Positions 25,303 to 54,268 are shown, numbered from the stretch's first letter. The stretch is 64,000 bases of DNA from Candidatus Bathyarchaeota archaeon (GCA_018396775.1 JAGTRF010000002.1:14069-78068), one strand, 5' to 3'. Notes: a model not told the origin generated them from the sequence alone. A program made the numbers and translations.

Positions 25303-26955
25303 TTGAGTGCAGAGAAAACTTTATTTTTAAGACGTGCAACAGGGCTTGTTAGAGCTTGGGCTTTAAGCGACGCATTCATGTACGCTGCACTTTCCGTTAA
25401 TATCGTGACGTTAGGAATGTACGCTTTCTCATTTGGCAGTTTTCTTCCGCAGCATAATTTAGTACCCGCTATTCTTATAAGCTTTCTTATAATATTCTTA
25501 GAGATTATTGCGTATTGTGGATTAATTTCTGTTATGCCTAGAGCTGGTGGAGACTACGTTTGGCAATCAAGAGTTTTGCATCCTTTAATCGGTTTTGTTT
25601 TCGCTTGGAATTGTTGGGTTTCAGTTCTTTGGCTTTGGGGACCAATTTATGGGCAGATGCTTGTTTGGGAGTTTATAAGCCCACTGCTAGTTCTTTTTGG
25701 AAAAATTTCAGGTAATCCAGCGCTTTATTCAGCAGCTTTATGGTGGACCGGCTCCATGGGAGCTTTTATTGCCACATTAATTACTATAGGCTTCGTTTTT
25801 ATTTATGTAGGGTTAGGGATGAGAAATTACGCTAGAATACAAAAAACATGTTTTATCTTAGGAACTATAGGTGTTTTAGCTTTCATAGCTATTATAGCGG
25901 CAACTCCTCAAGCAGCTTTTATTAATGCATTCAGTAAGCATTGGTCTGAATTTACTGGTCAAGCAATCAGCTATAACGATGTGATAGAGCGAACAACTCA
26001 AATTGGTGATTGGAGTTTAGATTTTAGAGATTATCCTTTTTCAGCTACTATAGCTTCCTTAAGCCTACCGTTAATTCCATTTGTTGTATTCTTTAATCTT
26101 TATCCTCAGTGGGGTGCTACTCTTTACGGTGAAGTTAGAGGGGCAAGCGATTTTAAGAGGCAAGCAGGCGCTATGGCTATAGGAAGCATTTTCATGAATA
26201 TTTTAGCTGTTATAATGCTTTTAGCCTTATGGAAATTTATTGGTTACGAGTTCTTTAATGCTTCAAATTATCTCTTTTGGTATTACATCTATACAGGGGC
26301 CGATTCTACTGTGCCATTGTTTCCATATCCTCCTCTATTAGCCACTTTCATTCTTGAAAATCCTGCTTTAGGCGCGCTGCTAGTTTTCTTAATAGGCTTA
26401 TGGTTTTTCGGTTGGTCTGGAACTTTATTCCTATCCTCTACACGAGTAGTTTTCGCTATGGCTTTTGATAGAGTTCTCCCAGAATGGTTTGGAAAAGTTA
26501 CAACAAAATTTAGAACTCCAATAAATTGCTTAGCATTTATGGCTATAATGACCACTTTCATAGGATGGCTTTACTGCTTTAACATCGGAGGCTTTACCAG
26601 GCTTACTCTTGACGCTGTATTTATGATTGCTGTAGGCTATGCTGTAACATGTATTGCGGCAGCGATAGTTCCCTGGCGTATGCCTGATGCCTATAATCGG
26701 GCTCCAATATCAAAATATAAAATTGGAGGAATCCCTGTGATTACTATAGCTGGAGTACTGTTCGCATTATTCCTAATTTGGGTTATGTATCTTTGGGCTA
26801 TAGACCCTGTTTATGGCGTTAATGATCCAGTATCAGTAATATATTTAATAGCTAACTATATAGCGGCTGTGATAATCTTTTACGCGTTTAAATGGTATAG
26901 AAAGAAGCAAGGAATTGAAGTGGATATGCTTTATAAAGAGATTCCAACCGAATAA
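25303..26955 (+). CDS. APC-superfamily permease (12 TM). Paralog of 47380..49008.
   Basis: Polytopic. TTG start after AAGGAGG. Similar in length and N-terminus to the second copy. Confidence 0.7.
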   Translation: MSAEKTLFLRRATGLVRAWALSDAFMYAALSVNIVTLGMYAFSFGSFLPQHNLVPAILISFLIIFLEIIAYCGLISVMPRAGGDYVWQSRVLHPLIGFVFAWNCWVSVLWLWGPIYGQMLVWEFISPLLVLFGKISGNPALYSAALWWTGSMGAFIATLITIGFVFIYVGLGMRNYARIQKTCFILGTIGVLAFIAIIAATPQAAFINAFSKHWSEFTGQAISYNDVIERTTQIGDWSLDFRDYPFSATIASLSLPLIPFVVFFNLYPQWGATLYGEVRGASDFKRQAGAMAIGSIFMNILAVIMLLALWKFIGYEFFNASNYLFWYYIYTGADSTVPLFPYPPLLATFILENPALGALLVFLIGLWFFGWSGTLFLSSTRVVFAMAFDRVLPEWFGKVTTKFRTPINCLAFMAIMTTFIGWLYCFNIGGFTRLTLDAVFMIAVGYAVTCIAAAIVPWRMPDAYNRAPISKYKIGGIPVITIAGVLFALFLIWVMYLWAIDPVYGVNDPVSVIYLIANYIAAVIIFYAFKWYRKKQGIEVDMLYKEIPTE

Positions 26956-26977
26956 AACCTCTCTTCCCTATTTTTTG

Positions 26978-27739
26978 TTATATCTCTTCCACTTCTTTAT
27001 ACCATTTTGTTTTTGTTCCTATTTTCGCGCGCACTTTCCAACTCATACTTTTAGGTTTTTCCTCTATTTTATTTAAAATTTCATCTATTTTATTTTTTAC
27101 ATCAATAATCTTATCTTCTGTTAAAACTTGAGAATAAGAATCTGCAAGAGTTTTAATCTTCTTTAAATTAGTTGTAACTGTATAATAAAAACCCCAATCT
27201 TTAGCTAAAAGCTCAGCTATATAACCGCTGTTAACAACTTCTTTTTCATCATCATCTCCAATTTTATGATCGCTAAGAAGAACAACAACATCTTTAACAT
27301 CTTTCTCGTTTATTTCAACTATTTGAAGCTTCTCTAAAAGCAAGTCTGCTAAAGATATGGTTGGATAATCTACAAGAAGCCTTCCTCTAAAATCAATTTT
27401 ATGACACATATCTAATTCGTTAAAGAAAACATCCACATGAATTCCTATCTCAGGTTTCTCATAAATATGTCTAGCTTCAGCCATAATAGCCATAAATCTT
27501 TCTCTAGGTTTATAGCCTATATCCAAAAAAAACTTTTTAACTTTTTCTCTATCGCTTGTAGTCATAAGGTCTATATCTGTAAATTGACGGCTTAAAGCTT
27601 CATGAAGAGATTTAGCTTCATTAGAGCTGTGAACATAAATAGCTAAAGCCCCCATCAATCTTAATGGTAGTCCTTTAGATTCTCCTAAATCAACTATTTT
27701 AACAGCTTCATCTATAAGAATCTTTTTAGTTAAAGCCAA
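26978..27739 (-). CDS. Hypothetical protein (possible nucleotidyltransferase-like fold).
   Basis: GS...DxD-like spacing (FTDIDLM, GIHVDVFF). Weak. Confidence 0.3.
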   Translation of the reverse strand: MALTKKILIDEAVKIVDLGESKGLPLRLMGALAIYVHSSNEAKSLHEALSRQFTDIDLMTTSDREKVKKFFLDIGYKPRERFMAIMAEARHIYEKPEIGIHVDVFFNELDMCHKIDFRGRLLVDYPTISLADLLLEKLQIVEINEKDVKDVVVLLSDHKIGDDDEKEVVNSGYIAELLAKDWGFYYTVTTNLKKIKTLADSYSQVLTEDKIIDVKNKIDEILNKIEEKPKSMSWKVRAKIGTKTKWYKEVEEI

Positions 27740-27832
27740 CTTCAGCTTCAGCCTCCCCTTAAAATAGGTAAAATTTAAGTATAATAAAGCTTATTAACTT
27801 TTACGATTAAACTCCTTTTAAGAGGAAAACTT

Positions 27833-28774
27833 ATGACCAGAATATTTTTCGCGACCGATGTTCACGGTTCAGAAAAATGCTGGAAAAAATTTGTTAACGC
27901 TGGAAAATTTTATAAAGCTAACATCTCAATTTTAGGCGGAGATTTAACTGGTAAAGCTGTAATTCCAATAGTGAGCGAAGGCAACAACATTTATAAAGTG
28001 AATTTTTTAGAGCAGGATTTTAATTTAAAATCTAGTGAAGAGCTTGCTGAAATGGAGTATAAAATAGTTAATTCAGGTTATTATCCATATATTGTTTCTC
28101 GTGAAGAGTTAAAAGAGTTAAGTGTTAATCCAGATAAAGTTAATAAAATTTTTGAGCAGTTAATGACTGAGCGGTTAGAGAATTGGTTAAGGTTTGCTGA
28201 TGAAAAATTAAAGGGTTCAGGGATTAAAGCGTATGTTTGCCCAGGAAACGATGATCCATTCATAATTAACGAGTTAATTAAGAAATCTGAAGTTATAGAA
28301 AATGCTGAGGGAAAAGTTGTTGAGGTAGATTCTTATCATGAAATGATAAGCTCTGGATGGACTAATGTAACTCCATGGAAAACTTTTAGGGAATGCAGTG
28401 AAGAAGAGCTTGAAAGAAAAATAGAAGAAATGACTCAAAAAGTTAATAATTTGAGAAACTGTATTTTTAATCTTCACGCTCCACCATATGGATCTGGGCT
28501 TGATGAAGCTCCCCAATTAGATGAAAGCCTTAAGCCTATTTATGGAGGGCAGGTTTTAATGCCTGTTGGAAGTAAAGCTGTTAAAGAAGCTATAGAAAAA
28601 TATCAACCGCTTCTCGGGCTTCACGGGCACATTCATGAAGGTAAGGGTTTTTCACGCATTGGAAGAACTTTATGCATTAACCCTGGCAGCTCTTATGAAG
28701 AAGGAACATTGTTAGGCGCTATAATTGATTTAGATAAAGGAAAAATAGTTAGACATATGCTTGCAACAGGTTGA
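27833..28774 (+). CDS. Calcineurin-like metallophosphoesterase. Paralog of 49148..50182.
   Basis: DVHGS, GGD, GNDD and GHIHE metal-ligand motifs. About 50% identical by eye to the second copy. Confidence 0.75.
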   Translation: MTRIFFATDVHGSEKCWKKFVNAGKFYKANISILGGDLTGKAVIPIVSEGNNIYKVNFLEQDFNLKSSEELAEMEYKIVNSGYYPYIVSREELKELSVNPDKVNKIFEQLMTERLENWLRFADEKLKGSGIKAYVCPGNDDPFIINELIKKSEVIENAEGKVVEVDSYHEMISSGWTNVTPWKTFRECSEEELERKIEEMTQKVNNLRNCIFNLHAPPYGSGLDEAPQLDESLKPIYGGQVLMPVGSKAVKEAIEKYQPLLGLHGHIHEGKGFSRIGRTLCINPGSSYEEGTLLGAIIDLDKGKIVRHMLATG

Positions 28775-30215
28775 AAGGAAGGAGAATTTTATGCTTAAAT
28801 TTTTATCTAATAATGAGGTTTTAGAAATTCATAACGCCTCCTTAAAAATGTTGAATAAGCTTGGCGTAATAATAAAACATGAAAAACTTCTTAAAATGCT
28901 TAAGGATGCTGGAGCTGACGTTGATGAAGAAAAGCAGTTAGCTAGACTTCCAATATACTTGATTGAAGAGTTTGTTAGTAAAGCTCCAAGCGGGTATATT
29001 ATGGGCGGTCGAAAAAGAGAATATGATTTATATGTTGGAGATGGTAAAAGTTATGTTAGGAGTCAAGGTGGCTGCGATCGTATCTTAGATTTAGAAACAG
29101 GTGTTATTAGAGAAGCTAATACAAACGATGTTATTAACGCTACAATCATTCAAGATGCTTTAGAAAACATTCATTGGTGCGCAAGCTTTCTTCATCCAAG
29201 TGATGAACCTCCAATGACAAGAGATCTTTATCAATTAATGCTAATGATGGAAAATACTGTAAAGCATATAGTAGCTCAACCATATACAACTGAATCTTTT
29301 AAGTATCAAGTTAAAATGGCTAAAGCTATCATTGGAGATGAGGAAGAATTCATGAAAAGACCTCTTATAAGCGTTTTTGTTGGGCCAACAAGCCCGCTGG
29401 AAATAGATAAACATAACTGCGAGCTTATAGAAATAGCTGCTAAAAATAGAATTCCAATAATGCCTGTTAGCGCTCCTATAGCTGGCGCTACTGGTCCAGT
29501 AACTTTAGCTGGGTTAGCAGCTTTAGCTCACGCTGAAATAATGATGATTGTTGTTTTAACTCAATTAATTAATCCAGGTGCTCCAATAGAGTATACACCT
29601 AGACCTAACACTATGGATATGCGAACTGCTCAATCACTTTGGGGAGCCATAGAATATGCGTTAACTTCAGCTATTGGGGTTCAATTAGCTAGGCTTATTA
29701 AGCTTCCAGTATGCGTTCAATGCTTAAGCACAGACTCTAAGCTTCCAGATGCTCAAGCTTGCATAGAGAAAACTATGCAAATAACTTTAGCAGCTTTAAT
29801 GAAGCCTGATACGATGACTGGTGCTGGAGGAATAGATTCTGTTAAAACTGCAAGCTTAGAGCAATTAGTAATCGATAATGAAATAATAGGTATAGCTAAA
29901 AGAATTGCTAAAGGGGTTGAAGTTAACGATGAAACAATTGCTTATCATGTTATCGAAAGAGTTAAGCATGGCGGCCATTTTCTAGCTGATAAACATACCA
30001 GCAAATATTATTTTGAGGAGCATTATATACCTAAGCTTTTTGATAGAAATGCTAGAGGAGCATGGGAAGCCGCTGGCGGAAAAGACTTAACAACTAAAGC
30101 AAAAGAAACTGCAAAGAAAATTCTTAAAGAATATGAGCAGAGACCATTAGATGAAGATGTTAAAAAAGACTTAAGAAAAATAATGGATGAAGCTAGAAAA
30201 AACTTGGTTAAATAA
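28761..30215 (+). CDS. MttB-superfamily corrinoid-dependent methyltransferase, non-pyrrolysine type (quaternary-amine methyltransferase-like).
   Basis: PLISVFVGPTSPLE, LEQLVIDNEII and AWEAAGGKDL match trimethylamine methyltransferase blocks. Uninterrupted ORF with Ser/Thr in the region where MttB carries pyrrolysine. Confidence 0.8.
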   Translation: MQQVERKENFMLKFLSNNEVLEIHNASLKMLNKLGVIIKHEKLLKMLKDAGADVDEEKQLARLPIYLIEEFVSKAPSGYIMGGRKREYDLYVGDGKSYVRSQGGCDRILDLETGVIREANTNDVINATIIQDALENIHWCASFLHPSDEPPMTRDLYQLMLMMENTVKHIVAQPYTTESFKYQVKMAKAIIGDEEEFMKRPLISVFVGPTSPLEIDKHNCELIEIAAKNRIPIMPVSAPIAGATGPVTLAGLAALAHAEIMMIVVLTQLINPGAPIEYTPRPNTMDMRTAQSLWGAIEYALTSAIGVQLARLIKLPVCVQCLSTDSKLPDAQACIEKTMQITLAALMKPDTMTGAGGIDSVKTASLEQLVIDNEIIGIAKRIAKGVEVNDETIAYHVIERVKHGGHFLADKHTSKYYFEEHYIPKLFDRNARGAWEAAGGKDLTTKAKETAKKILKEYEQRPLDEDVKKDLRKIMDEARKNLVK

Positions 30216-30220
30216 AATAT

Positions 30221-31141
30221 TTAAAATAAGTTTTTGCTTGTTACTTCTGGATATTTTTCTTTCAGCATTTCAAAATGCTTTAAACACTCGTTAAATTGGA
30301 ATCTCGCGTAGCTATTAAAATCGAAATCTAACTCTGAAACATGATATTGCATAACTGCCCATAAACCCCACCAAAGCCTAGATGGAAGCTTATATAAATC
30401 TACTCTACGCTTCTCTCTTGCTTTTCCATCGCCAAAATATAATTGCTTTATATGTTCCTCCTCATCACTTGTTAAATTATCAAGCTCTGCAATAAAATCA
30501 GCGATATCAAAGCATGGGTCATTCATCCCTGCATACTCCCAATCAATAATGTAAACTTTATCATTAACGAAAATGAAGTTTTCAGGTAAAAGATCATTAT
30601 GGCATGGAGCAAGCTTTATAGGCTCATCTTTACGCGCTTCAACCTCTATGTTTTTAACTGTTTTAACCATTTCATCTACTGGGTAATCGCTTAAAATAGC
30701 CTTGCCGTAAGGTTTAAGCAAACTATTATATCTTTCAACCTCTCTAAAGATATTAAATATATTGCAAAGTTGAACGTTAGAATTGTGAATTAACTTTATA
30801 GCGTTAACAGCTTTCCATCTAACTTTAGGATCTTTAAAATCTTCTTTTTTAGCTACCTTTCCAGAAATAAACTCAATAATCGATATTTGAGTATCTTCTT
30901 TATGCTCGTAAAGCTTTGGAGTTATTTCAGTCGCTTCTAAAGCTTTTAAATTTTTTATTTCAGCTTCCCTATCTATAAAAAGCTCTGTTTTTTTACCTGG
31001 AATTCTAACCTTATATTTTCTGCCTTCTTCATCCTCCACTAAATAAAGCTCGTTCGTTATTCCACCTTTAAGCTTAACAACCTTCACCGGTTTCTCAAGC
31101 CATTCACGCCTTAAGCTTTTAATAAACGTTTCATCAATCAA
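30221..31141 (-). CDS. Choline/ethanolamine-kinase-like phosphotransferase (APH/ChoK family).
   Basis: HNDLLPENFIF (catalytic loop) and IDWEYAGMNDPCFDIADF (ChoK signature). Confidence 0.7.
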   Translation of the reverse strand: MIDETFIKSLRREWLEKPVKVVKLKGGITNELYLVEDEEGRKYKVRIPGKKTELFIDREAEIKNLKALEATEITPKLYEHKEDTQISIIEFISGKVAKKEDFKDPKVRWKAVNAIKLIHNSNVQLCNIFNIFREVERYNSLLKPYGKAILSDYPVDEMVKTVKNIEVEARKDEPIKLAPCHNDLLPENFIFVNDKVYIIDWEYAGMNDPCFDIADFIAELDNLTSDEEEHIKQLYFGDGKAREKRRVDLYKLPSRLWWGLWAVMQYHVSELDFDFNSYARFQFNECLKHFEMLKEKYPEVTSKNLF

Positions 31142-31257
31142 TTTTGCTTCCTTACTATAAATTATTTAGAAGCATTTTAAGGTAATGTTTATCGATTGAA
31201 AACTTAAGGTAAAGGTTTTAAAAAGCTTTACATGGAAAGAGAAAAATATTAAGGGTT

Positions 31258-31665
31258 TTAAGGTGGAGGATAAGGTGCATAAGCCACTCTTAAAACCCAG
31301 TATAATAAATCTTTTTCTGTAATTATCCCTTCAAGCTTTCCATTCTTCACTACTGGAAGACGTCTAATATTGTTTTTTCGCATAAGTTGAAGGGCTTCAA
31401 AGATTCCTGTATCTGGAGAAACAGTAATTAAAGGTTTACTCATAACATCTTCAGTCTTCTTATCTAATGTTTCCTTATTTGCAACAAGTTTTTTCGCAAT
31501 ATCTCTTTCCGTTAATATTCCTACTGGTTTACCGTTTTTAACGATTAAAACGCTTCCTATACCTTTTTCAGCCATTATTTGAAGGGCTTTTAACACTTTT
31601 TCTGAAGCATCAACTGTTATCACGTTTTTACTCATTATTTGAGATACGAAATCTTCACTAGCCAA
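31258..31665 (-). CDS. CBS domain pair protein.
   Basis: Two CBS repeats (GSVLIV...GILTERDI and RRLPVV...GIITEKDL). Confidence 0.75.
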   Translation of the reverse strand: MASEDFVSQIMSKNVITVDASEKVLKALQIMAEKGIGSVLIVKNGKPVGILTERDIAKKLVANKETLDKKTEDVMSKPLITVSPDTGIFEALQLMRKNNIRRLPVVKNGKLEGIITEKDLLYWVLRVAYAPYPPP

Positions 31666-31823
31666 TTTTCTCCCTCCAATCGCATTTAATTCTATTGTTT
31701 AAGGCAGAGTTTAGATATAAAGTTTTAGGTTAAATATTTGCTGTTTTATAAAGCTTTATGAAAGTTTAACGCTTATATCTCACGTTTTAATTTAATTGTT
31801 AAAAGAGTTAAAAAAGATTAAAA

Positions 31824-33407
31824 ATGAATCAAAAGCTTTTAAATTGCAAATTACTCCTTGAAAAGCTTAAAGATAAAGAGTTAAGCGTTAAAGAAGTTAA
31901 TGAATTAAAACTGAAGATAGCGAAGCTCCTTAATCTTGAAAGAATTTTAAGCAACTCTGAAATTTTATCTATACTGAATGCTGAAGAAAGAAAAGCTTTA
32001 CTAAGATTACTTCAATTAAAAAAGGTTAGAAGCATTTCAGGCGTAAATATAGTAGCGGTTATGGCAGCTCCTTACAAATGTCCTCATGGAAAATGCGTTT
32101 ATTGTCCTTCTGAACCAGGGGTTCCAGAAAGCTATACTGGTCATGAACCATCTTCTATGAGAGGTCTTCAATATAATTTTAATCCTTATCTTCAAGTTTT
32201 AAATAGAATAAAACAATTAACTGATATTGGGCATTTAGTAAGCAAGGTTGAGCTTATAATTCAAGGCGGCACCTTTCCAGCTATGCCTGTTTCTTATCAA
32301 AAAGATTTTGTTAAAAGTTGTTTAGAAGCTATTATTGGAGAAAAAACTGAATCTTTAGATGAAGCTAAAAAGAAAGCTGAAGAAAGCAAAATTAGAAATG
32401 TTGGATTAACAATTGAAACTAGACCAGACTGGTGTAAACAAAAGCATATAGATTTAATGCTTGAATTAGGCGCTACTAGAGTTGAAATAGGAGTTCAAAC
32501 TTTATATGATGATATTTATAAATTAGTTGAAAGAGGGCATACAGTTCAAGATGTTATAAATGCTTTTAGAATGGCTAAAGATTCAGGTTTAAAAATTGTA
32601 GCGCATATGATGCCTGGTTTACCTGAATGCAATTTTGAAAGAGATTTAAAAGCTTTTCAAATTTTATTTAAAGATTCAAATTTTAAGCCTGATATGCTTA
32701 AAATTTATCCATGCTTAGTTTTAAAAAACACGAAGCTTTACGAATGGTGGAGAGAAGGAAAATATAGGCCTTATTCTACAGAGGAAGCGGTAGAGTTAAT
32801 TGTTAAAGTGAAGGCTAATATCCCTAAATGGGTTAGAATAATGAGAATTCAAAGAGATATTCCAGCTAAATTAATTGTCGCAGGAGTTAGAAAAAGTAAT
32901 TTAAGAGAGTTAGCTCAAGAAGAATTAAGACGGAAAGGTTTAAAATGCAATTGCATAAGATGTAGAGAAATAGGCCATAAAATGTTAAGGGAAAATGTTA
33001 AACCTAAATTTGAAAGCCTTCAACTTAATATTGAAGAGTACAAGGCTTCTGAAGGAGTTGAATTGTTTATTTCAATTGATGAACCAAGCTTGGACGCGTT
33101 AATTGGTTATTTAAGGCTTAGAATTCCATCAGAAAAAGCTGAAAGAATTGAGTTAACTGATGGAAAAACTTCTATAGTTAGAGAGCTTAAAGTTTGCGGT
33201 CCAGTAGTGCCTTTAGGAGAGCATTTTAAAGATGCTTGGCAGCATAAAGGTTTAGGTGCAAAACTGATTTTTGAAGCTGAAAAAATTAGCTTAGAAAAAT
33301 TTGATTGCAAAAAAATTCTTGTTTTAAGCGGTTTAGGCGTAAAACATTATTATAAACGTTTAGGTTACTATCCTGAAGGCCCTTATATGGCTAAAAAGCT
33401 TATTTAA
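31824..33407 (+). CDS. elp3: Elongator Elp3 homolog (radical SAM plus GNAT, tRNA wobble-uridine modification).
   Basis: CPHGKCVYCP rSAM motif. C-terminal GNAT (KGLGAKLI). 527 aa. Confidence 0.85.
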   Translation: MNQKLLNCKLLLEKLKDKELSVKEVNELKLKIAKLLNLERILSNSEILSILNAEERKALLRLLQLKKVRSISGVNIVAVMAAPYKCPHGKCVYCPSEPGVPESYTGHEPSSMRGLQYNFNPYLQVLNRIKQLTDIGHLVSKVELIIQGGTFPAMPVSYQKDFVKSCLEAIIGEKTESLDEAKKKAEESKIRNVGLTIETRPDWCKQKHIDLMLELGATRVEIGVQTLYDDIYKLVERGHTVQDVINAFRMAKDSGLKIVAHMMPGLPECNFERDLKAFQILFKDSNFKPDMLKIYPCLVLKNTKLYEWWREGKYRPYSTEEAVELIVKVKANIPKWVRIMRIQRDIPAKLIVAGVRKSNLRELAQEELRRKGLKCNCIRCREIGHKMLRENVKPKFESLQLNIEEYKASEGVELFISIDEPSLDALIGYLRLRIPSEKAERIELTDGKTSIVRELKVCGPVVPLGEHFKDAWQHKGLGAKLIFEAEKISLEKFDCKKILVLSGLGVKHYYKRLGYYPEGPYMAKKLI

Positions 33408-42602: not shown

Positions 42603-42603
42603 T

Positions 42604-45687: not shown

Positions 45688-46101
45688 ATGGAGTTATCTA
45701 AAATCGTTAGGTTAGATTCTAAAGGTAGAATATTGATTCCTTCAAGCATTAGAGCTGGATTAGGTTTATGTAAAGGTATGTATCTGATGATTTATGCAAA
45801 TTTAAATAATAAAGAAGCGCGATTGATTCCTTTCGCTGATTCTAAAGCTAAGCTTATAAACTTTAAAATGACGCTTTCAGATGCGCCTGGAGCTTTAGCT
45901 AAAGCCGCTTCAACTTTAGCTAATTATGGTGTAGATTTACTTTCAAGCGAATCAAGAACTATTCAAAGAGGGAAAATCGCTGAATGGAATGCTATAGGTG
46001 ATATATCTAAATGCAAGCTTAACCTTAAAGAGTTGAAAAAAGCTTTAGAAAAAGAAGCTTCAGCTAAAAATATTCAATTCAAAAAGTTATCTCTTGATTA
46101 A
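45688..46101 (+). CDS. AbrB/SpoVT-type DNA-binding domain fused to an ACT domain (putative small-molecule-responsive regulator).
   Basis: N-terminal IVRLDSKGRILIPSSIR (swapped-hairpin). C-terminal ACT-like region. Confidence 0.55.
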   Translation: MELSKIVRLDSKGRILIPSSIRAGLGLCKGMYLMIYANLNNKEARLIPFADSKAKLINFKMTLSDAPGALAKAASTLANYGVDLLSSESRTIQRGKIAEWNAIGDISKCKLNLKELKKALEKEASAKNIQFKKLSLD

Positions 46102-47152
46102 AATTTATTTTATTAACTGTTAACCAATCCATTAAATCTAAGTCATGAATTAAAAATTTTAGGTATTCACTTACATTTTTATCTCCAGCATAAAAATCGC
46201 TAATATCCCAGTGAATTAAGAAAAGGTTTACCGCTTTTATTAAAGCTGGTAAAGCTTTTATCTCCATTTCATTTAAAGCATTACTTTTCCCTTTCTCAAT
46301 AAAGGTTTTTTGATAAGCTTTAAAAAACTCTAAAGCTTTATTAACATCTATAGCATTTTCTCCTTTTTCACCCCAAACACCGCATGTATAATAAATGGCG
46401 TAAGCAACATCATAGGCTCTAGCATCCCATTTAACCCAATCGAAATCATACATAGCTGTTACTTTATTATCTTTAAACTTTAAGTTTCCAAGATGAAAAT
46501 CTCCAAAAACAACTATTTTAGGCAGGGTAGCGTAACCTATTGCCTTCAACTCTTTATAAATTTTAATGCTTTTCTCTTTTAGCTTATCTTTATTGCTTAA
46601 AAATAGTTTGCAAAAATCTGTTTCATCAGCTTTCTTAGAAAGATTTTCAAATTCTTTTCTTAAATTAAAAATTAATTTATCAAGTGGAAGCGTTTTCTTT
46701 TTTGATTTAGGTTTAAATCCTTTAACATGAATATGGTATTCAGCTAAAGTTTTAGCAGCATCTTTTAACTCTAAAATATTACAATATGGATAATACCATG
46801 TATACTTGTCTTCACCAATTGCAAATTCAAATAACGCGTAAAACACTATCTTTTTATAATTATTTCTTTTCTCAAATTTAGATACATAAGTTTTACCGGT
46901 TTTAGTTTTAAGTAAACGAGGAGTTTTTTGAAATCCTGAATTTATTAAATGGTTTATAAGCTCATGCTCGAAATTTACTTCGTTTCTTCGAGCGTTATCT
47001 CTATAACGCCTTAAAAAATATCTTCCTTTAGAAGTTTCAATAATATAGCTAACGTTAACATAGCCGCTGCTTAACTTTTCAGTTTTAATCACTTCACCTA
47101 AATCATAATTTTCTTTAATAATACTTTTTATATTGGTTAATTCATTTATCAA
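46079..47152 (-). CDS. APH/ChoK-family phosphotransferase. Second copy.
   Basis: FGDFHLGNL (catalytic loop) and DFDW..W motif. Confidence 0.65.
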   Translation of the reverse strand: MINELTNIKSIIKENYDLGEVIKTEKLSSGYVNVSYIIETSKGRYFLRRYRDNARRNEVNFEHELINHLINSGFQKTPRLLKTKTGKTYVSKFEKRNNYKKIVFYALFEFAIGEDKYTWYYPYCNILELKDAAKTLAEYHIHVKGFKPKSKKKTLPLDKLIFNLRKEFENLSKKADETDFCKLFLSNKDKLKEKSIKIYKELKAIGYATLPKIVVFGDFHLGNLKFKDNKVTAMYDFDWVKWDARAYDVAYAIYYTCGVWGEKGENAIDVNKALEFFKAYQKTFIEKGKSNALNEMEIKALPALIKAVNLFLIHWDISDFYAGDKNVSEYLKFLIHDLDLMDWLTVNKINFNQEITF

Positions 47153-47379
47153 AATAGAAGAGGCCTCTTAACTCGTTTTATTATTATTTAATTTTTAATT
47201 TAAAGCTGAAACAAAAAGTTTTTTGTAGAATAATTAAAGAATTCTAATACACTTCTTCTCTTTATATATAAAATATATAGATATATTACTTCAATATACG
47301 AAAATCTTAAATACTTAATGGGATAATAGCAAGGACTTATTTTGCGAGCTTTAATTAAATTAGGAGGAAAAATTAAAGC

Positions 47380-49008
47380 TTGGCTGAGAAAGGTGTTTTT
47401 ATAAGAAAAGCAAGCGGATTAGTAAGGGAAGTAGCTCCAATAGATGCTTGGATATACAACTGCCTTACAATGGGTTGGCTGTCTGTTATTGCCTATAATG
47501 TTGTAGTAAATGTTGCTATATTTCCTGGTGGAAACCATAGTGCAGCTATACTTATGACTGCTGTGCTTGGAACATTCATGTGGACAACCTATATATTTAT
47601 AACAACTGCTATGCCTAGAAGTGGAGTTGATTGGATTGCTCAAAGCAGGTTTATAAGCCCATGGGTAGCTGCACCAATAGTTATAGGAGACTTTTTCTAT
47701 TTAGTCTATTGGGATGTTTGGGCTTATTGGTTTGTTACATTTTTAGGTTTGCAACCATTTCTTACAGTTTTAGGCGCAGCTGCAAATAATCCTTCAATAA
47801 GCCAATTTGGTGAATGGCTTATAACATCTAAAGGCCTCTTTATAGTTGGAATGATATATCTGTTTCTAATGGGGTGGCAGCTTGCTCTGCCTATAAGGCT
47901 TTTCGCAAAAATTCAAAGAGGGTTAATGTTTTTTGCAACGCTTGCAATAATAGTTATGTATGCTGTTTTCGCGATGACGCCGAACTCGGTTTTTATTCAA
48001 CGCTTCAACTTGTTTGCTGAAGCTTTTGGTGCTGGACCAGATTATTACCATGCGGTTATACAAAAAGCTAGTGAAGTAACTAATTTAAATCCAGGCTTTA
48101 GATGGTATGATCAAATTGGCTTAATGGTTTTAATTTGGAGCCTTTTAGGATGGGCTTTTTGGAGTGCTCAACTTAGTGGAGAAATAAAAGGAGCTGATAA
48201 GCTTAAAGTTCAAAACTTTATAATGAATGGTTCAGGTTGGGCTACAGCTATAGCATGGCTTATAGCTTGGCTTTTAATATCTAGATCAGCCGGTGAAGAA
48301 TTTATGAAAGCTGCTGGATTTCTAGGTTTAAGCGGTGAATGGGAACTGCCTGTGGCACCTTATTTAGCTGGTTATCTTGCAGGTGCTACTATGGCCCCTG
48401 GATTTGGAACTTTAATAATCGTTGTGCTTTTAATACTTGCTTTAGGCTTGGTTTGTAATGGATATCAAGTTTACTATAATACTATGGTTGGCCCCATTAG
48501 AATGTTTTTCGCTATGGCTTTTGATAGAGCTCTTCCTGATGTATTTTCTAGAGTGCATAAAAGATGGCATACACCTGTATATGTTATTTGGTTGGCTTGC
48601 GCTGTAGCTGCTATTCAAATTTACGTTTCAGCTTATGCGCCTGAAGTTGCACCAGTATTCCTTCCAGCTGCGCTTTCAAGCGGATGCATACCATACTTCT
48701 TTACATCTTTAGCTGGAGCCTTAATGCCTTATACTGGAAAACCGATTTATGAAGCTTCTCCAGCAGCTAAATTTAAGCTTGGTCCAATACCGTTAATAAC
48801 AATTACTGGTGGGATTAGCTGCATCTTTAACGCTACAATGGCTTATTACTGGCTTACGGTTCCAGAGCTTGGAATAAACCCAGCTTCTATGGTTTTCGTA
48901 TTAATAGCATATATTGTAGGCTTTGTTTATTATGTTTTCTGGAGAACATATAGAAAAAGGCAGGGTATAAATCTAGATTTAGCATTTAAAGTTATTCCAC
49001 CAGATTAA
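47380..49008 (+). CDS. APC-superfamily permease. Paralog of 25303..26955.
   Basis: TTG start after TAGGAGG. Polytopic membrane protein. Confidence 0.7.
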   Translation: MAEKGVFIRKASGLVREVAPIDAWIYNCLTMGWLSVIAYNVVVNVAIFPGGNHSAAILMTAVLGTFMWTTYIFITTAMPRSGVDWIAQSRFISPWVAAPIVIGDFFYLVYWDVWAYWFVTFLGLQPFLTVLGAAANNPSISQFGEWLITSKGLFIVGMIYLFLMGWQLALPIRLFAKIQRGLMFFATLAIIVMYAVFAMTPNSVFIQRFNLFAEAFGAGPDYYHAVIQKASEVTNLNPGFRWYDQIGLMVLIWSLLGWAFWSAQLSGEIKGADKLKVQNFIMNGSGWATAIAWLIAWLLISRSAGEEFMKAAGFLGLSGEWELPVAPYLAGYLAGATMAPGFGTLIIVVLLILALGLVCNGYQVYYNTMVGPIRMFFAMAFDRALPDVFSRVHKRWHTPVYVIWLACAVAAIQIYVSAYAPEVAPVFLPAALSSGCIPYFFTSLAGALMPYTGKPIYEASPAAKFKLGPIPLITITGGISCIFNATMAYYWLTVPELGINPASMVFVLIAYIVGFVYYVFWRTYRKRQGINLDLAFKVIPPD

Positions 49009-49147
49009 ACCTCTTTTTATTTTTTTATAAATAAGGAGGTGAAGATTATATTGGATCCGGAAGATAAAGGAATGATTATTTTTTCAATCTTAATGTGGAT
49101 AATAATTATAGCTTGGCTTATTGCTGCGTCTTGAGAAACCCGTTTTT

Positions 49148-50182
49148 TTATCCAGATACAAATTGATAATTTACTACCTTTTTATCAGCTATAGTTATTA
49201 ACGCAGCCCTTAATATTCCTTCCCCATACTCGCTTCCAGGATTAACACATAATGTTCTTCCAATTTTCCTGGTGCCTTTAGATTCATGTATATGGCCATG
49301 TAAACCAAGCAGTGGTTGATATTTTTCTATAGCTTCTTTAACAGCTTCGCTTCCAGCACCATAAAAAACCATTTGGGCTCCCTCAAAAACTGGTTTTGGT
49401 GGATAAACTGTTGTATCAAGTTTTGGAGCTGTATCAAGCTCCGAGTCTTTGGGTGGAATATGAAAATTGAATATAGCATTTTCCATATCCTTAATTTTAG
49501 AAATCATTTCTTCTATTTTTCTTTTAAGCTCCTCTTCGTCGCATTCTCTTGGGGTATTCCAAGGAGTTGGGTTTCCCCAACCTAAGCTTGCCATTTCATG
49601 AACATCATCAATACGCACTACTTTTCCATCAGGATTTTTAACATGCTCAGTATCTTTAATAAGTTCAACAACTTCTTGTTCATCATCATTTCCTCCAGTT
49701 ATATAGCAGATAATATTTGTTCCCTTTAGCCGTTCTTCTGCGATTTCCATCCAGTTTTTCAAGCGTTCCCGCATTAATTCATCAAATATTTTTTTGCGTT
49801 TTTCTTCATTAGCTTCAAGTTCTTCATACTCTTTTTGAGTTACATGCAAGGGGTAAAAACCTGTTGTTAAAATTCTTTTTTCTAAATAGGGTAATTCATC
49901 TTTATTTTTAGCTTTTTGTTCTTGTCCTAAGAAATATGACTTATATATGCCATCAGCCTGCTCAATTATTGGAACAACCATTTTCCCTGTTATATCTCCA
50001 CCTAAAATAAGCGCGTCAACTTCATAGATTTTCCCAGCGTTAATAAATTTTTTAAATGTAGGTTCAGATCCGTGCACATCTGTAGCAAAAAGAATTTTAG
50101 TTATTTTTTCTTCACTTTTCTTTTTACCGAAAAAAGGCAAGCATAAACGCCTCCAAAATTTAAACGTGAATAATTTATACAC
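49148..50182 (-). CDS. Calcineurin-like metallophosphoesterase. Second copy.
   Basis: Same DVHGS, GGD, GND and GHIHE motifs as 27833..28774. The true start is probably downstream of the track start. Confidence 0.7.
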   Translation of the reverse strand: MYKLFTFKFWRRLCLPFFGKKKSEEKITKILFATDVHGSEPTFKKFINAGKIYEVDALILGGDITGKMVVPIIEQADGIYKSYFLGQEQKAKNKDELPYLEKRILTTGFYPLHVTQKEYEELEANEEKRKKIFDELMRERLKNWMEIAEERLKGTNIICYITGGNDDEQEVVELIKDTEHVKNPDGKVVRIDDVHEMASLGWGNPTPWNTPRECDEEELKRKIEEMISKIKDMENAIFNFHIPPKDSELDTAPKLDTTVYPPKPVFEGAQMVFYGAGSEAVKEAIEKYQPLLGLHGHIHESKGTRKIGRTLCVNPGSEYGEGILRAALITIADKKVVNYQFVSG

Positions 50183-50256
50183 TATTATAATATTTAAAGC
50201 TTTTTTGTTAAAACCTAAAGGTTTTTAAAGCTTTAAAAGCTTAAAATATTGCTGAA

Positions 50257-50772
50257 ATGCTGGAAACTTTAAAAATTCATGGAATAGAGCTTAAACATCC
50301 TGAAGAATGGGTAATTCACCCAATAATTAAATTGGAAAGACTTAGAGGAGAAATTGCTTTTTCCTCTAGCGAACAAAAAAGCGCAACGCCTAAGCTTATG
50401 CTTTCATGGAAACCTTTAGAGCAATCTAAAAGAAAATATAATTCACCTGAAGATCAAGCTGAAGCAACTATAAAAATAATGCGGAAAGACAGCTCATTAA
50501 AATCTCTTGAAATAATTAATCATGAAGAAATTAATGTTAACAACCATAAAGCAAGCTTTTATAATATTAAAATAACCCTTTATAAACCAGCTTTAATAAT
50601 GATTAAACCAAAATTCACAATTAAAATCGTAAAATTTGCAATGCTTTTCTGCGAAGAATCTGACCGCTCAATAACACTTTACTCTGAGCTAGAAGAAACA
50701 GAAGAAAAAGAAGATGTATTTAAAGAAATTCTTTCATCACTAATATGCCATTCAACCAAGCGTAAAATTTAA
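50257..50772 (+). CDS. Hypothetical protein.
   Basis: 171-aa ORF directly upstream of the methyltransferase genes. Confidence 0.35.
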   Translation: MLETLKIHGIELKHPEEWVIHPIIKLERLRGEIAFSSSEQKSATPKLMLSWKPLEQSKRKYNSPEDQAEATIKIMRKDSSLKSLEIINHEEINVNNHKASFYNIKITLYKPALIMIKPKFTIKIVKFAMLFCEESDRSITLYSELEETEEKEDVFKEILSSLICHSTKRKI

Positions 50773-50818
50773 ATTCTTATTACAGCTTGATTATTCAGCG
50801 TTAAAATTAAATTGAAGA

Positions 50819-52204
50819 ATGAGGAATGAAAATTTGCCTCCTATAAGTTTTATTGAAGTTTTAAATCGAAGCTTGACAGGTCCAGTTTCATCAGAAAAAG
50901 AGTTTGATTATAAAGTTGGCATGAAATTAAGAGAGCTTGTAAAAAAATATGATATTAAATATAATCCAGAAAACCCAATCCCATCTGACAATAGTTTAGC
51001 TGATGATGTATTTAAAGCAGCTGTAGAATTTTATACTGATGTAGGCACTTATTGCATGGATACCGAGCGAAGAATAACATTTACAGAGGATGAAATTAAA
51101 GAAGGAATAAAAAATGTGCCACATGCAACCCTTTTTGGGGAAGGAAATGAAGCAAAATTTTTCTCTGCTAGAACGCTTGAAAGCTCTGAGCATCCATGGT
51201 GTCATGTAGGTGCTGGAATAGCCGTATCCAGTGAAGAACTATTAGTAAAACTTGTTGAAGCTTTTGCAAGCATTCCTGAAACTGATTCCGTAAGCGTTCC
51301 TACATTAACTGAGGTTGATGGCGTTCCTATAAGAACACCGCCATTAGAAGTTTATGGATCAATAAGAATGATTGCTTTAGCTCATGAAGCTATGAAAAGA
51401 GCCGGTCGCCCAGGTTTACCGATTTTAAATTTAGTTTCTACAGCAGCTTCTCAAATAGCTGGAATAGCTGCAACAGCTCCTCAATTTGGGATAAAACCAA
51501 CAGATGGATGGCTTGTAGATGCTTTCCCAGATTTAAAAATGTATAACGATGTTTTAACTAAAGCAGCTTACCTGTTAAACTGGGGCGCAAATATAGGTGC
51601 ATGTTATACACCATTAATAGGTGGATACTCTGGAGGACCTGAAGGAACAGCTATAATGAGTGTTGCTTACTCGATAAACGGGATAATGGTGTTAAAATCA
51701 AGATATCAACTTTACTATGTTTCAAATATAGTAAACGGTTCATCAAGCAGTAGAGACGCTCTTTGGGCTTTATCAGTTAGCGCGCAAGCAATAAGCAGAA
51801 ACATTAAAGTACCTATAATTCATTTATCTTATCAAGCTGCTGGAGCTGCTACAGAAATGCTATTATATGAAATTACAGCAGCTATATTAGCGTCGGTGGC
51901 TTCCGGCATCTCAGTAGAAAGCAACCATCCATCTAAAGCTGTGTTAACCGATCATATAATCCCTATGGAATCTGAATTTTATTGTAAAGTTGCGCATGCT
52001 GTTACTGGCATGAAAAGAAGTGAAGTAAATGAACTTGCAAAAATCCTATTACTTAAATATGAGAAGGATTTAAATAATCCGCCTAAAGGAAAAAAATATC
52101 AAGAATGTTATGATGTTAAAACAGGTAAACCAAAGGAAGAGTATTTAAAATTCTATAAAGTTATGGAGAAAAAAATTATTGATTTAGGAATACAAATTGA
52201 ATAA
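50819..52204 (+). CDS. MtmB-family (monomethylamine methyltransferase-like) corrinoid-dependent methyltransferase, non-pyrrolysine.
   Basis: C-terminal PKGKKYQECYDVKTGKPKEEYLKFY resembles the MtmB C-terminus. AGRPGLPILNLVSTAASQIAG aligns where MtmB encodes Pyl. The ORF is uninterrupted. This rests on my recall of MtmB sequence. Confidence 0.65.
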   Translation: MRNENLPPISFIEVLNRSLTGPVSSEKEFDYKVGMKLRELVKKYDIKYNPENPIPSDNSLADDVFKAAVEFYTDVGTYCMDTERRITFTEDEIKEGIKNVPHATLFGEGNEAKFFSARTLESSEHPWCHVGAGIAVSSEELLVKLVEAFASIPETDSVSVPTLTEVDGVPIRTPPLEVYGSIRMIALAHEAMKRAGRPGLPILNLVSTAASQIAGIAATAPQFGIKPTDGWLVDAFPDLKMYNDVLTKAAYLLNWGANIGACYTPLIGGYSGGPEGTAIMSVAYSINGIMVLKSRYQLYYVSNIVNGSSSSRDALWALSVSAQAISRNIKVPIIHLSYQAAGAATEMLLYEITAAILASVASGISVESNHPSKAVLTDHIIPMESEFYCKVAHAVTGMKRSEVNELAKILLLKYEKDLNNPPKGKKYQECYDVKTGKPKEEYLKFYKVMEKKIIDLGIQIE

Positions 52205-52239
52205 AGTTTATAAAAATAACAAATGGAGGGAAAATTAGG

Positions 52240-52884
52240 TTGTCTTCTAAAGAAGAGATTTTAAATAAGGTTGTTTTGGATTTGTTTAGTTATGATGTTG
52301 ATGGTATTAGGGTTGATGTTGAAAAGGCTTTAGAAAAAGGTTTTTCGCCTTTAGAGGTTATTAACGCCTTATCTAATGGTATGCGTGAGATTGGTGATAA
52401 GTTTGCTAGGCTTGAGCTTTTCTTAACTGATTTAATGATGGCTGGTGACACGATGAAGGCTGCTTTAGAAATATTACTGCCTAAAATTCCTAAAGATAAA
52501 GCTGTAAGTAAAGGCAAAATTGTTATTGGAACTGTTAAAGGGGATATTCATGAAATAGGCAAGAATATTGTTTCAGCCATGTTGACAGCTTCAGGTTTTG
52601 AAGTTTACGATTTAGGGAAGGATGTTCCAGCTTCAAGGTTTCTTGAGGAAGCTGAGAAATTTAAAGCTAATATTATAGGCGCTTCAGCATTAATGACAAC
52701 AACAATACCCGCCTTAAAAGATTTAATAGAATATGTTAAGGCTAAAGGCTTAAGAAATAAATATAAAATAATAGTTGGTGGAGGACCAGTAACAAAAGAA
52801 TATGCGGAGGAAATAGGTGCAGACGCATATGCGGAAAACGCTGTAGAAGCCGTTAAAACAATAAAAAACCTAATAGAAAAATAG
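52240..52884 (+). CDS. Corrinoid (cobalamin-binding) protein, MtmC/MttC-like.
   Basis: Helical cap plus Rossmann B12 domain with GDIHEIGKNIV (DxHxxG). TTG start after GGAGGG. Confidence 0.8.
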   Translation: MSSKEEILNKVVLDLFSYDVDGIRVDVEKALEKGFSPLEVINALSNGMREIGDKFARLELFLTDLMMAGDTMKAALEILLPKIPKDKAVSKGKIVIGTVKGDIHEIGKNIVSAMLTASGFEVYDLGKDVPASRFLEEAEKFKANIIGASALMTTTIPALKDLIEYVKAKGLRNKYKIIVGGGPVTKEYAEEIGADAYAENAVEAVKTIKNLIEK

Positions 52885-52897
52885 AGGAGACACATAT

Positions 52898-54268
52898 ATG
52901 AACTCTGTTAACTTCTTTGAAGTTTTAAAACGCGCTTCATCAGGTCCCATAGTTTCTGAAAAAGAATTTAATATACTGGTTTTTAAAAAGCTTAAAGAAG
53001 TTGTGAAAGAGTACGATATAAAATTTGATGGTGAAACCCCAGTTCCTTTTGATGATAGTTTAGCTGATGATGTATTTAAAGCTGCTTTAGATTTTTATGC
53101 TGATGTAGGCACTTATTGCATGGATACTGAGCGTATAATAAAATTTACAGAGGATGAAATTAAAGAAGGCTTAAAAAATGCTCCTCATAAAGCTTTTTTT
53201 GGAGAAGGAAAAGAAGCGAAAACTTTTATACCTAGAAAACCTGAAAGCAAAGAAACTCCATGGTGTCATGTAGGTGCTGGAATAGCTGTATCTAGTGAAG
53301 AAATTCATTCAAAGTTAGTTGAAGGATACGCTAGCATTCCTGAAGCAGATTCTATAAGCGTTCCAGCATTAGCTTTTATAGAAGGTGTTTCAATAAGGGA
53401 GCCTCCAATAGAATTTTATGGTGCTTTGAAAATGTTAGCTTCAGCTAAAGAAGCTTTAAGAAGAGCCGGTCGTCCAGGCTTACCGATTTTAAATCTTGTT
53501 TCTACAGCGGCCTCTCAAATAGCTGGAATAGCTGCTAGTGCAGCGCAATTTGGCTTAACATCTTCTAACGGATGGTTAGTTCCCACTTATCCAGAATTAA
53601 AAATTGGAAATAATGAGTTATGTAAAATAGCTTATCTGCTTAGTTGGGGAGCAAATATTGGTGCTGAATACTCGCCGTTAATAGGTGGCTACTCTGGTGG
53701 ACCTGAAGGAACAGCAGTAGTGTTTGTTGCTAATTGCATTCAAGGAATACTAGTTTTAAAGTCTACTTATCAACTTGCTTGGATAACAAATGTTATTGAT
53801 AGATGCTCAACTACTAAAGATGCCATATGGGCTTTAGCTGTAAGCGGTCAAGCAATAAGCCGAAATATATCTTTTCCAGTTATTCAATTTCATTATCAAG
53901 CAGCCGGTCCAGCAACTAAAATGCTGCTTTATGAGGTTGCTGCAGGCATGATTGAGATAGTGGCTTCAGGTCAAGCTATAGAAACAGCGCATCCAGCTAG
54001 AGCTGTAGAAATAGATTATGTAACGCCGTTAGAAATGAAATTTTCTGTAGAAATAGCTCATGCAGCAGCAGGAATGAAAAGAACAATGGCAAACGAAATA
54101 GTTAAAGAACTACTAGAAAAATATGAAAATAACATTAAAAATGCTCCTAAGGGAAAAAAATATCAAGAATGCTTTGATTTAAAAACAGGTAAACCTACCG
54201 AAGAATACTTAAGAATATATAATGAAGTGAAAAAAGAGCTTAAAGATATAGGTATCCCATTTGAATAA
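52898..54268 (+). CDS. MtmB-family methyltransferase, second paralog, non-pyrrolysine.
   Basis: Collinear with 50819..52204 (GRPGLPILNLVSTAASQIAG and PKGKKYQECFDLKTGKPTEEYLRIY). About 55-60% identical by eye. Confidence 0.65.
   Translation: MNSVNFFEVLKRASSGPIVSEKEFNILVFKKLKEVVKEYDIKFDGETPVPFDDSLADDVFKAALDFYADVGTYCMDTERIIKFTEDEIKEGLKNAPHKAFFGEGKEAKTFIPRKPESKETPWCHVGAGIAVSSEEIHSKLVEGYASIPEADSISVPALAFIEGVSIREPPIEFYGALKMLASAKEALRRAGRPGLPILNLVSTAASQIAGIAASAAQFGLTSSNGWLVPTYPELKIGNNELCKIAYLLSWGANIGAEYSPLIGGYSGGPEGTAVVFVANCIQGILVLKSTYQLAWITNVIDRCSTTKDAIWALAVSGQAISRNISFPVIQFHYQAAGPATKMLLYEVAAGMIEIVASGQAIETAHPARAVEIDYVTPLEMKFSVEIAHAAAGMKRTMANEIVKELLEKYENNIKNAPKGKKYQECFDLKTGKPTEEYLRIYNEVKKELKDIGIPFE

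Follow-up and report, generated by a model that had tools for sequence, protein, structure and literature searches.

A conserved permease, phosphoesterase and nucleotidyltransferase-fold gene core linked to kinases and corrinoid-dependent methyltransferases in Bathyarchaeia

A 64,000-nucleotide (nt) stretch of a Candidatus Bathyarchaeota archaeon genome (GCA_018396775.1 JAGTRF010000002.1:14069-78068; hereafter the window) carries two loci, copy 1 and copy 2, in which genes for an APC permease, a metallophosphoesterase (MPE), a kinase and corrinoid-dependent methyltransferases lie together. The constant core of this arrangement is the APC permease, a cytoplasmic MPE and, usually, a protein with a polymerase-beta (pol-beta)-type nucleotidyltransferase fold (p253), wired here to a kinase and to corrinoid-dependent methyltransferases. 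The core is spread over at least eight phyla. We tentatively propose, short of considering it probable, that the two loci could serve a kinase-dependent corrinoid demethylation of a choline-type amine, with the permease carrying the amine and the MPE removing the phospho handle.

Conservation and organization of the gene core

An MPE-alignment scan of one genome per species returned more than 590 relatives. The counts given here cover the best 80 loci, which are mostly from Anaerolineales, with others from Bathyarchaeia, Syntrophomonadaceae, Planctomycetota, Thermodesulfobacteriota and Geobacteraceae; neighbours were counted by tblastn of the window proteins against these loci. The permease gene lies within 600 bp of the MPE gene in 71 of the 80 loci, most exceptions being truncated contigs, and the permease homologs beside MPE show 39-45% identity. 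Within 10 kb of MPE, a p253 homolog is found in 47 of the 80 and a choline-kinase homolog in 23, while an MttB homolog is located directly upstream of MPE in 20; p253 is steadier from locus to locus than the kinase and the methyltransferase. Five of these MPE-centred loci have a corrinoid protein, and none has MtmB. The kinase is found in 10 of the 12 loci with an adjacent MttB gene versus 8 of 25 others (Fisher p=0.005, uncorrected for phylogeny).

Two MPE genes are present in eight loci, and in seven of these both adjoin a permease gene. With type 1 and type 2 assigned after the two window copies, 75 MPE/permease pairs are type 1/type 1, seven are type 2/type 2 and one is mixed (r = 0.89). 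Individual look-up identified the MPE-permease-p253 triad in Leptolinea tardivitalis, Peptococcaceae CEB3, a Heimdallarchaeote and an Actinobacterium, and triads without kinase or methyltransferase occur in Leptolinea, Actinobacteria and Heimdallarchaeota. An earlier note on this stretch, made from its sequence, had taken the parts for a functional unit and had named a neighbourhood search in other genomes as the check on chance juxtaposition. The same neighbourhood is kept in lineages ranging from Bathyarchaeia to Chloroflexota, Firmicutes, Actinobacteria and Heimdallarchaeota, and the arrangement is beyond chance because it recurs in at least 80 independent loci.

The link between MtmB and the gene set is found within Bathyarchaeia. 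Homologs of the first MtmB of the window (MtmB1), with 89%, 73% and 49% identity, are encoded in bathyarchaeal clusters with a kinase, corrinoid protein, MPE and permease. Two of the relatives (L084 and L085) contain p253, MPE, permease, MtmB, corrinoid protein and the choline kinase (ChoK), and a third (L086) has MtmB, corrinoid protein, MPE, permease, a C45 hydrolase, an MttB 53% identical to that of the window, ChoK, p253 and a second MtmB, all in a single cluster. The genes are arranged differently in these three loci. The locus with the 89% identical MtmB (L083) comprises an APH-type kinase, a p253 gene broken into two open reading frames (ORFs), MtmB, corrinoid protein and MtrH; that cluster has neither MPE nor permease, so the kinase, p253, methyltransferase and corrinoid protein stay linked without these two. 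Its APH-type kinase, beside the broken p253, is a 78% identical ortholog of the one in copy 2. Finally, L089, from a close relative of the window organism, shows synteny with copy 1, down to the position of the CBS protein; the adjacency of ChoK and MttB is seen in both L086 and L089.

The genes of the two loci are as follows.

Copy 1
25303-26955, plus strand: APC-superfamily permease, type 1 (550 amino acids (aa); PF13520, 61.7 bits, residues 27-514)
26978-27739, minus strand: p253, pol-beta-type nucleotidyltransferase-fold protein (253 aa), between permease 1 and MPE1
27833-28774, plus strand: metallophosphoesterase MPE1, type 1 (313 aa)
28761-30215, plus strand: non-pyrrolysine (non-Pyl) MttB-superfamily methyltransferase (PF06253, E 1.2e-94, residues 10-477)
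30221-31141, minus strand: choline/ethanolamine-kinase family protein (306 aa; PF01633, E 8e-35)
31258-31665, minus strand: CBS-pair protein (PF00571, twice), upstream of and co-directional with the choline kinase gene
Copy 2
46079-47152, minus strand: APH-type phosphotransferase, homoserine-kinase/CotS-like (357 aa; PF01636, E 8e-22)
47380-49008, plus strand: APC-type permease, type 2 (542 aa; by homology to permease 1)
49148-50182, minus strand: metallophosphoesterase MPE2, type 2 (PF14582 and PF12850 matches; about 330 aa from TTG 50140)
50257-50772, plus strand: p171, orphan ORF in the position that p253 occupies in relatives
50819-52204, plus strand: non-Pyl MtmB-superfamily methyltransferase 1, MtmB1 (PF05369, E 2e-88)
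52240-52884, plus strand: corrinoid (B12-binding) protein (PF02310 and PF02607), between the two MtmB genes
52898-54268, plus strand: non-Pyl MtmB-superfamily methyltransferase 2, MtmB2 (PF05369, E 3e-95)

The window has a GC content of about 32%, and the two loci are flanked by archaeal housekeeping genes (GatDE, an ATP-dependent ligase, the thermosome and the his operon). The MttB reading frame likely starts at ATG 28791 (474 aa), 16 nt past the MPE1 stop codon, and MPE2, as reassessed from the sequence, likely starts at TTG 50140. The ChoK gene is convergent with MttB and lies 5 nt from the MttB stop codon. The corrinoid protein of copy 2 is the only one in both copies. p171 has no Pfam or NCBIfam match and no homolog in any of the loci retrieved; it is at most a candidate gene. 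That it could be a remnant of p253 is ruled out as far as tblastn detects.

The earlier note described the loci as two copies of a four-part module. Every ORF it listed is present at its coordinates and belongs to the family assigned, including the MttB-family enzyme in copy 1 and the MtmB-family enzyme with a corrinoid protein in copy 2, for which Pfam matches were obtained; p253, the CBS protein and the second non-Pyl MtmB had been overlooked. Both permease genes start at TTG after GGAGG, as noted, with the start of permease 1 located 9 nt behind it. The two MPEs, described as closely related with identical metal motifs, are 53% identical (E 4e-119), and the DxH, GD, GNDD, H and GHxH motifs are all invariant between them. 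The permeases are a pair in so far as they are homologous over their full length (542 residues, E 6e-51), but they are distant paralogs with 26% identity. The kinases do not form a duplicated pair: the match between them (E 2e-4) covers just 84 N-terminal residues, and by sequence they belong to the same superfamily and fold but are no paralogs. MtmB1 and MtmB2 are 62% identical to each other. We reject a recent duplication of the loci, given a permease identity of only 26% and the presence of both subtypes in Anaerolineales too. Because MPE type and permease type co-diverge across loci, the copies are, by sequence comparison, two ancient paralogous MPE-permease pairs that co-diverged.

Properties of the encoded proteins

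Permease 1 belongs to the APC superfamily by profile and permease 2, which has no Pfam match, by its homology to permease 1; a PDB sequence search with permease 1 found no relative. The MPE has the five metal-binding motifs and the alpha/beta sandwich fold of the calcineurin-like superfamily. Its profile gave only a weak match, to aq_1956, in the PDB, and the closest characterised relative is MPPED2, a phosphodiesterase. MPPED2 binds nucleotides, and we know of no relative in the MPPED2/aq_1956/TT1561 branch with an established physiological substrate. The window MPE shares only about 20% identity with this branch and differs from it by an insert between motifs II and III, about 90 residues long, in which a GYYP and a Trp are invariant.

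p253 displays the fold, glycine-rich motif, DxD pair and third acidic residue of pol-beta nucleotidyltransferases. Its best structural matches include MenT1, MenT4 and TglT, which modify macromolecules, and the small-molecule O-nucleotidyltransferases ANT(2'') and LnuA match equally well. p253 has the pol-beta fold, Gly motif and three conserved acidic residues in common with ANT(2'')-Ia, LnuA and MenT, but identity to these proteins is 13-24% (24% for LnuA), the C-terminal helical domain is different, and p253 is found with a transporter and a phosphoesterase rather than with resistance or toxin-antitoxin genes. At 50% identity p253 has 434 representatives, whereas MPE homologs number thousands. 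The protein may provide an alternative nucleotidyl activation or have a regulatory role. Single p253 homologs (P0486, P0495 and P0502) are fused to MarR-type helix-turn-helix (HTH), AhpC/TSA and phosphoribosyltransferase domains. These fusions may be real or gene-calling artefacts and, because they are single and heterogeneous, are not decisive for function.

The choline kinase scores 121 bits against PF01633 (cut-off 29 bits) and matches LicA (4r77) at E 5e-28 and 3dxq at E 3e-30. Its Brenner motif HNDLLPEN and its choline-kinase motif IIDWEYAGMNDPCFDIADF align with the same motifs of 3dxq, so that both profile and motifs place it in the PF01633 family. The APH-type kinase of copy 2 matches the NCBIfam family thrB_alt (2.7e-17) and 2ppq (2e-6), and by sequence resembles type-II homoserine kinases and CotS. 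Homologs of it are encoded beside p253 or the island in two further loci (L017 and L024).

The MttB protein of the window matches the PF06253 profile of the MttB superfamily (COG5598) over its full length. Its closest solved structure is the Pyl-containing MttB 7xcm (E 6e-72), and its match to MtgB is less close (E 6e-50). We reject it as a pyrrolysine enzyme, as its ORF runs without interruption and has Ser323 opposite Pyl334 of Methanosarcina barkeri, and its TIGR02369 score (454.8) is below the cut-off of 525 for trimethylamine methyltransferase. The alignment of MtmB2 with M. barkeri MtmB (1l2q, E 1e-58) runs from one end to the other, with Leu in place of Pyl202. Both copy 2 enzymes thus resemble MtqB, a non-Pyl MtmB discussed below, in their full-length PF05369 match, lack of pyrrolysine and adjacent corrinoid protein, although no Methanococcoides protein is among the best 120 homologs of the window MtmB. 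The corrinoid protein contains the DxHxxG motif (GDIHEIG).

A possible route for choline-type amines and its alternatives

The logic of combining a kinase with a corrinoid methyltransferase is already known. In Eubacterium limosum, choline is demethylated only after phosphorylation by MthK, and the MttB-family enzyme MthB takes phosphocholine, not choline (Jiang et al., 2025, PMC12155760). This choline:tetrahydrofolate methyltransferase system consists of MthK, MthB, MthC and MthA plus an EamA transporter, and MthK recycles the phosphate from dimethylaminoethanol-phosphate, which according to the authors solves the problem of product dephosphorylation (PMC12155760). The main text of that paper contains no phosphatase, phosphoesterase, permease or Chloroflexi and refers to archaea generically or in its references only; the co-localised Mth homologs surveyed are named from Firmicutes (Clostridia, Negativicutes) and deltaproteobacteria only (PMC12155760). 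In a second report, MtqB and MtqC of Methanococcoides methylutens Q3c are shown to demethylate choline and tetramethylammonium (Kashyap et al., 2026, PMC13044021).

Similar to Mth, the window encodes a kinase of the APH/choline-kinase superfamily beside a non-Pyl MttB-family enzyme and a transporter, with a corrinoid protein in copy 2, and an alcohol would likewise be activated as a phospho-ester before corrinoid-dependent N-demethylation. The related locus L083 even has the APH-type kinase, non-Pyl MtmB, corrinoid protein and pterin methyltransferase MtrH in a row. In contrast to Mth, the host is an archaeon, the transporter is an APC permease instead of an EamA protein, copy 2 uses MtmB-family enzymes, the MttB lacks two residues reported as conserved in MthB (see below), and there is a dedicated MPE as well as p253, both of which Mth lacks because MthK recycles phosphate. 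With MtqB/MtqC the window shares a non-Pyl MtmB encoded beside a corrinoid protein; however, MtqB acts on unphosphorylated substrates in a methanogen that passes the methyl group to coenzyme M, and kinase, MPE and APC permease, found in the window loci, are not mentioned for the mtqB neighbourhood in the sections of that report consulted. MthB, MthK and MtqB are absent from the PDB matches obtained here and from the named homologs. The third comparison is with Lic-1 (LicB permease, LicA kinase, LicC cytidylyltransferase), where a permease, a choline kinase like the LicA-like one of the window and a nucleotidyltransferase are also encoded together. Unlike Lic-1, p253 has a pol-beta fold rather than that of LicC, LicD is absent, and the context is catabolic.

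The interpretation in the earlier note is therefore partly supported and partly overtaken by the 2025 and 2026 papers. Demethylation of a phosphorylated choline-type headgroup, as it suggested, would agree with the published Mth and MtqB biochemistry. Its view that the combination had not been described as a unit holds for the MPE-permease-p253 core, but the pairing of a kinase with an MttB-family enzyme and a corrinoid protein was published in 2025. Our full-text literature search found no paper combining "MttB" with "metallophosphoesterase", and a search on phosphocholine, choline kinase, permease and metallophosphoesterase found no paper on such a gene set. What is new is the MPE-APC permease-p253 core, the pairing with the MtmB family, the presence in archaea and Chloroflexota and the spread over at least eight phyla.

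In the route that we tentatively propose, the permease would import a choline-type amine, and the kinase would phosphorylate its hydroxyl group to give an acidic methylammonium ester, as judged from its family membership and the MthK precedent. The MttB and MtmB enzymes would then transfer N-methyl groups of a substrate of this type to the corrinoid protein, and a second methyltransferase encoded elsewhere, possibly MtrH in the case of L083, where it lies beside the corrinoid protein, would pass the methyl group to a pterin carrier. The MPE would hydrolyse the phospho-ester of the demethylated product, so that this could exit via the permease or be metabolised further. This route is supported by the enrichment of the kinase where MttB is adjacent and by the MthK/MthB and MtqB precedents; the choline kinase gene adjacent to MttB is also the gene context in which MthB-type enzymes are encoded.

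Several observations weigh against this proposal. In MtgB, R312, through a salt bridge, and H348 bind the acid group of the substrate, and both are reported to be conserved in MtcB, MtpB, MthB and MtyB (PMC13080624). In our sequence alignment, on which this residue test rests and in which H348 is a less strict criterion than R312, the corresponding positions are C318/G354 in the window MttB, Asp/Gly in the MttB of L086 and Gly/Asn in the MPE-adjacent MttBs of Anaerolineales; among those aligned, only the MttB of Peptococcaceae CEB3 (L002) has kept Arg/His. By this criterion the window and Anaerolineales MttBs are therefore not MthB orthologs, and at least three subfamilies are represented among the MPE-adjacent MttBs. 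The residue test makes it less probable that the window encodes an Mth system; it does not make a similar mode of action less probable, since there could be other ways of binding phosphate. Furthermore, Pfam annotation of the window identified no second methyltransferase or activase. Many triad loci have no kinase or methyltransferase within 10 kb, and therefore the core must have a function of its own that the proposed route does not explain. Kinase and phosphatase together cost one ATP per cycle, which E. limosum avoids, p253 has no assigned step, and the substrate and the order of the steps are inferred from sequence.

If the proposed route is correct, membrane-lipid choline would be a direct one-carbon (C1) source for non-methanogenic archaea, bypassing trimethylamine. 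Bathyarchaeia and Anaerolineae, which abound in anoxic sediments and other habitats low in oxygen, have very large numbers of non-Pyl MttB and MtmB homologs, and for the bathyarchaeal enzymes the gene context predicts choline-type amines handled as phospho-esters as substrates. This would carry the kinase-dependent demethylation logic of a gut acetogen (2025) to archaea, Chloroflexota and the MtmB family. The MPE is a candidate for a step lacking in the published pathway, that of a dedicated hydrolase of the demethylated phospho-ester. The conserved three-gene core is flagged here as one without an assigned function.

Rather unlikely, in our estimate, is a route in which the MPE acts first: the permease would import a zwitterionic ester of the phosphocholine or phosphoethanolamine type, the MPE would split it, and demethylases or oxidoreductases of the host would degrade the alcohol. 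The strict adjacency and co-diverging subtypes of MPE and permease fit this order, as do the triads without kinase or methyltransferase mentioned above, the PHO4 phosphate transporter and PhoU_div genes directly upstream of MPE in many Anaerolineales, and a weakly PhnS-like binding protein and an NPP-type phosphodiesterase in the same islands. In Peptococcaceae CEB3 the triad lies amid GbsR, iron-containing alcohol dehydrogenase (Fe-ADH) and aldehyde dehydrogenase genes, and its adjacent MttB keeps the R312/H348 equivalents; this fits conversion of choline to glycine betaine followed by demethylation without a phospho-intermediate. However, a choline kinase and a phosphocholine phosphatase in one operon would be futile, yet ChoK is located between permease and p253 in five loci, and the enrichment of the kinase where MttB is adjacent also speaks against an MPE-first order. 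APC permeases are not known to carry phospho-esters, and p253 is left unexplained here as well. Moreover, E. limosum did not grow on phosphocholine, though it has a different transporter (PMC12155760).

A regulatory role of the triad is improbable in our estimate: p253 would nucleotidylylate a protein, most simply the permease or a component of the methyltransferase system, and the MPE would erase the mark, making the triad a regulated transporter rather than a pathway. The structural matches of p253 to MenT1, MenT4 and TglT and the phosphodiesterase activity of MPPED2 point in this direction, but ANT(2'') and LnuA, which act on small molecules, match p253 just as well. The co-divergence of MPE and permease subtypes is what interacting partners would show, and CBS proteins, which bind adenosyl ligands, are regular neighbours. 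A MarR-type HTH domain fused to one p253 homolog also fits; the fusions are, however, single, heterogeneous and perhaps artefactual. No target site was identified.

A more speculative extension, which we consider quite doubtful, would treat the triad, with the kinase if present, as a general device of amino-alcohol catabolism that provides a removable acidic handle. p253 would nucleotidylylate choline, phosphocholine or their demethylated relatives, and the MPE, as a phosphodiesterase, would later take the handle off; in Bathyarchaeia, the MttB and the two MtmB enzymes might strip the three N-methyl groups of choline in turn on one corrinoid protein. An acidic methylammonium ester could serve unrelated demethylases, such as the MttB subfamilies, non-Pyl MtmB, Rieske oxygenases and enzymes like dimethylglycine/sarcosine dehydrogenase. 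If true, this would amount to a full choline-to-C1 route for abundant subsurface archaea.

It is very unlikely that the genes form an anabolic, Lic-like route in which imported choline is phosphorylated, nucleotide-activated by p253 and then added to lipids or glycans as a decoration, with the demethylases as neighbours that share the substrate. The permease, LicA-like choline kinase and nucleotidyltransferase do parallel LicB, LicA and LicC, but no locus contains a LicD-type transferase, p253 does not have the LicC fold, and the MPE hydrolase would have no role. MPE and MttB, moreover, are only 16 nt apart, and the neighbours (demethylases, aldehyde oxidoreductases, DeoR or GntR regulators) are catabolic. 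Chance juxtaposition of unrelated genes, for which the non-paralogous kinases and the different methyltransferase families of the two copies might be cited, has a negligible probability and is refuted by the conserved neighbourhood, with more than 80 loci, at least eight phyla and co-diverging subtypes.

Recurrent neighbours and further observations

When the ORFs of 82 loci and the window were clustered together into neighbour families, long same-strand islands proved common in Anaerolineales. A typical island starts with MPE2, permease 2 and ChoK (not always present), followed by a DeoR regulator, one or two dimethylglycine/sarcosine-dehydrogenase-like genes and a GbcA-like Rieske oxygenase, and continues with a PfkB kinase, MttB, MPE1, permease 1 and an ABC transporter with the weakly PhnS-like binding protein. 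A four-CBS protein and p253 are encoded divergently upstream of such islands, and the two adjoin each other in 11 Anaerolineales loci. The second common layout is PhoU_div, PHO4 phosphate transporter, MPE, permease, optionally ChoK, and p253. In loci of anaerobes (L002, L011, L060 and L077), aldehyde:ferredoxin oxidoreductase, Fe-ADH and aldehyde dehydrogenase are neighbours, and the Peptococcaceae CEB3 locus also has GbsR and an OpuA transporter. The shared theme of these neighbours is the catabolism of choline- or betaine-type N-methylated amines. A further family (c10, 249 aa), which follows p253 in Anaerolineales, was dropped as a member, since it has the look of a secreted, membrane-anchored protein and lies upstream of nuo genes.

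Some individual loci show additional features. L079 (1-18990; similarly L051, L071 and L074) is a same-strand island of about 15 genes, comprising MPE2, permease 2, ChoK, two dimethylglycine/sarcosine-dehydrogenase-like genes, the Rieske oxygenase, the PfkB kinase, MttB, MPE1, permease 1, the ABC transporter and a 269-aa NPP-type phosphodiesterase, with an EamA transporter then on the opposite strand. In the Heimdallarchaeote (L087, 3681-9774), a class-III aminotransferase gene and a 213-aa gene precede permease and MPE on one strand, p253 is divergent from MPE, and the locus ends with a PEMT-family gene. The broken p253 of L083 consists of two small ORFs (9424-9961) that correspond to the N-terminal and middle parts of the protein, through a frameshift, truncation or sequencing error. 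In L089 (6795-8884), gene calling gives an MPE fragment of 221 aa (85% identical) and an MttB of 441 aa, which suggests decay or assembly errors in that metagenome-assembled genome.

Within the window, a Fae-Hps fusion (formaldehyde-activating enzyme and hexulose-phosphate synthase), followed by a major facilitator superfamily transporter, is encoded at 54762-57267, 493 nt downstream of MtmB2; this may reflect a link to C1 metabolism or plain adjacency. At the other end of copy 2, an ACT-domain ORF (45688-46101) converges on the APH-type kinase gene and shares 23 nt with its 3' end, and as the ACT and APH pair is also found behind the his operon in L083, this junction is conserved.

Among the eight intergenic regions in copies 1 and 2, no k-mer of at least 10 bases occurs in three or more, and the shared 9-mers are AT-rich. 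The 10-base palindrome TAAAGCTTTA occurs 13 times in the window (1.4 expected, maximum of six in 100 shuffles), at positions 8486, 16939, 17146, 18411, 20049, 31749, 37860, 40866, 40928, 43322, 46331, 50226 and 59504. We reject it as a module-specific regulatory motif, as its sites are scattered over coding and intergenic DNA of the whole window. Unrelated to the loci described here, three consecutive minus-strand radical-SAM genes, one with a SPASM domain, and an adjoining gene whose 917-aa product combines an AAA ATPase domain with a C-terminal Lon protease domain occupy 5244-9843 and 10225-12978 of the window.

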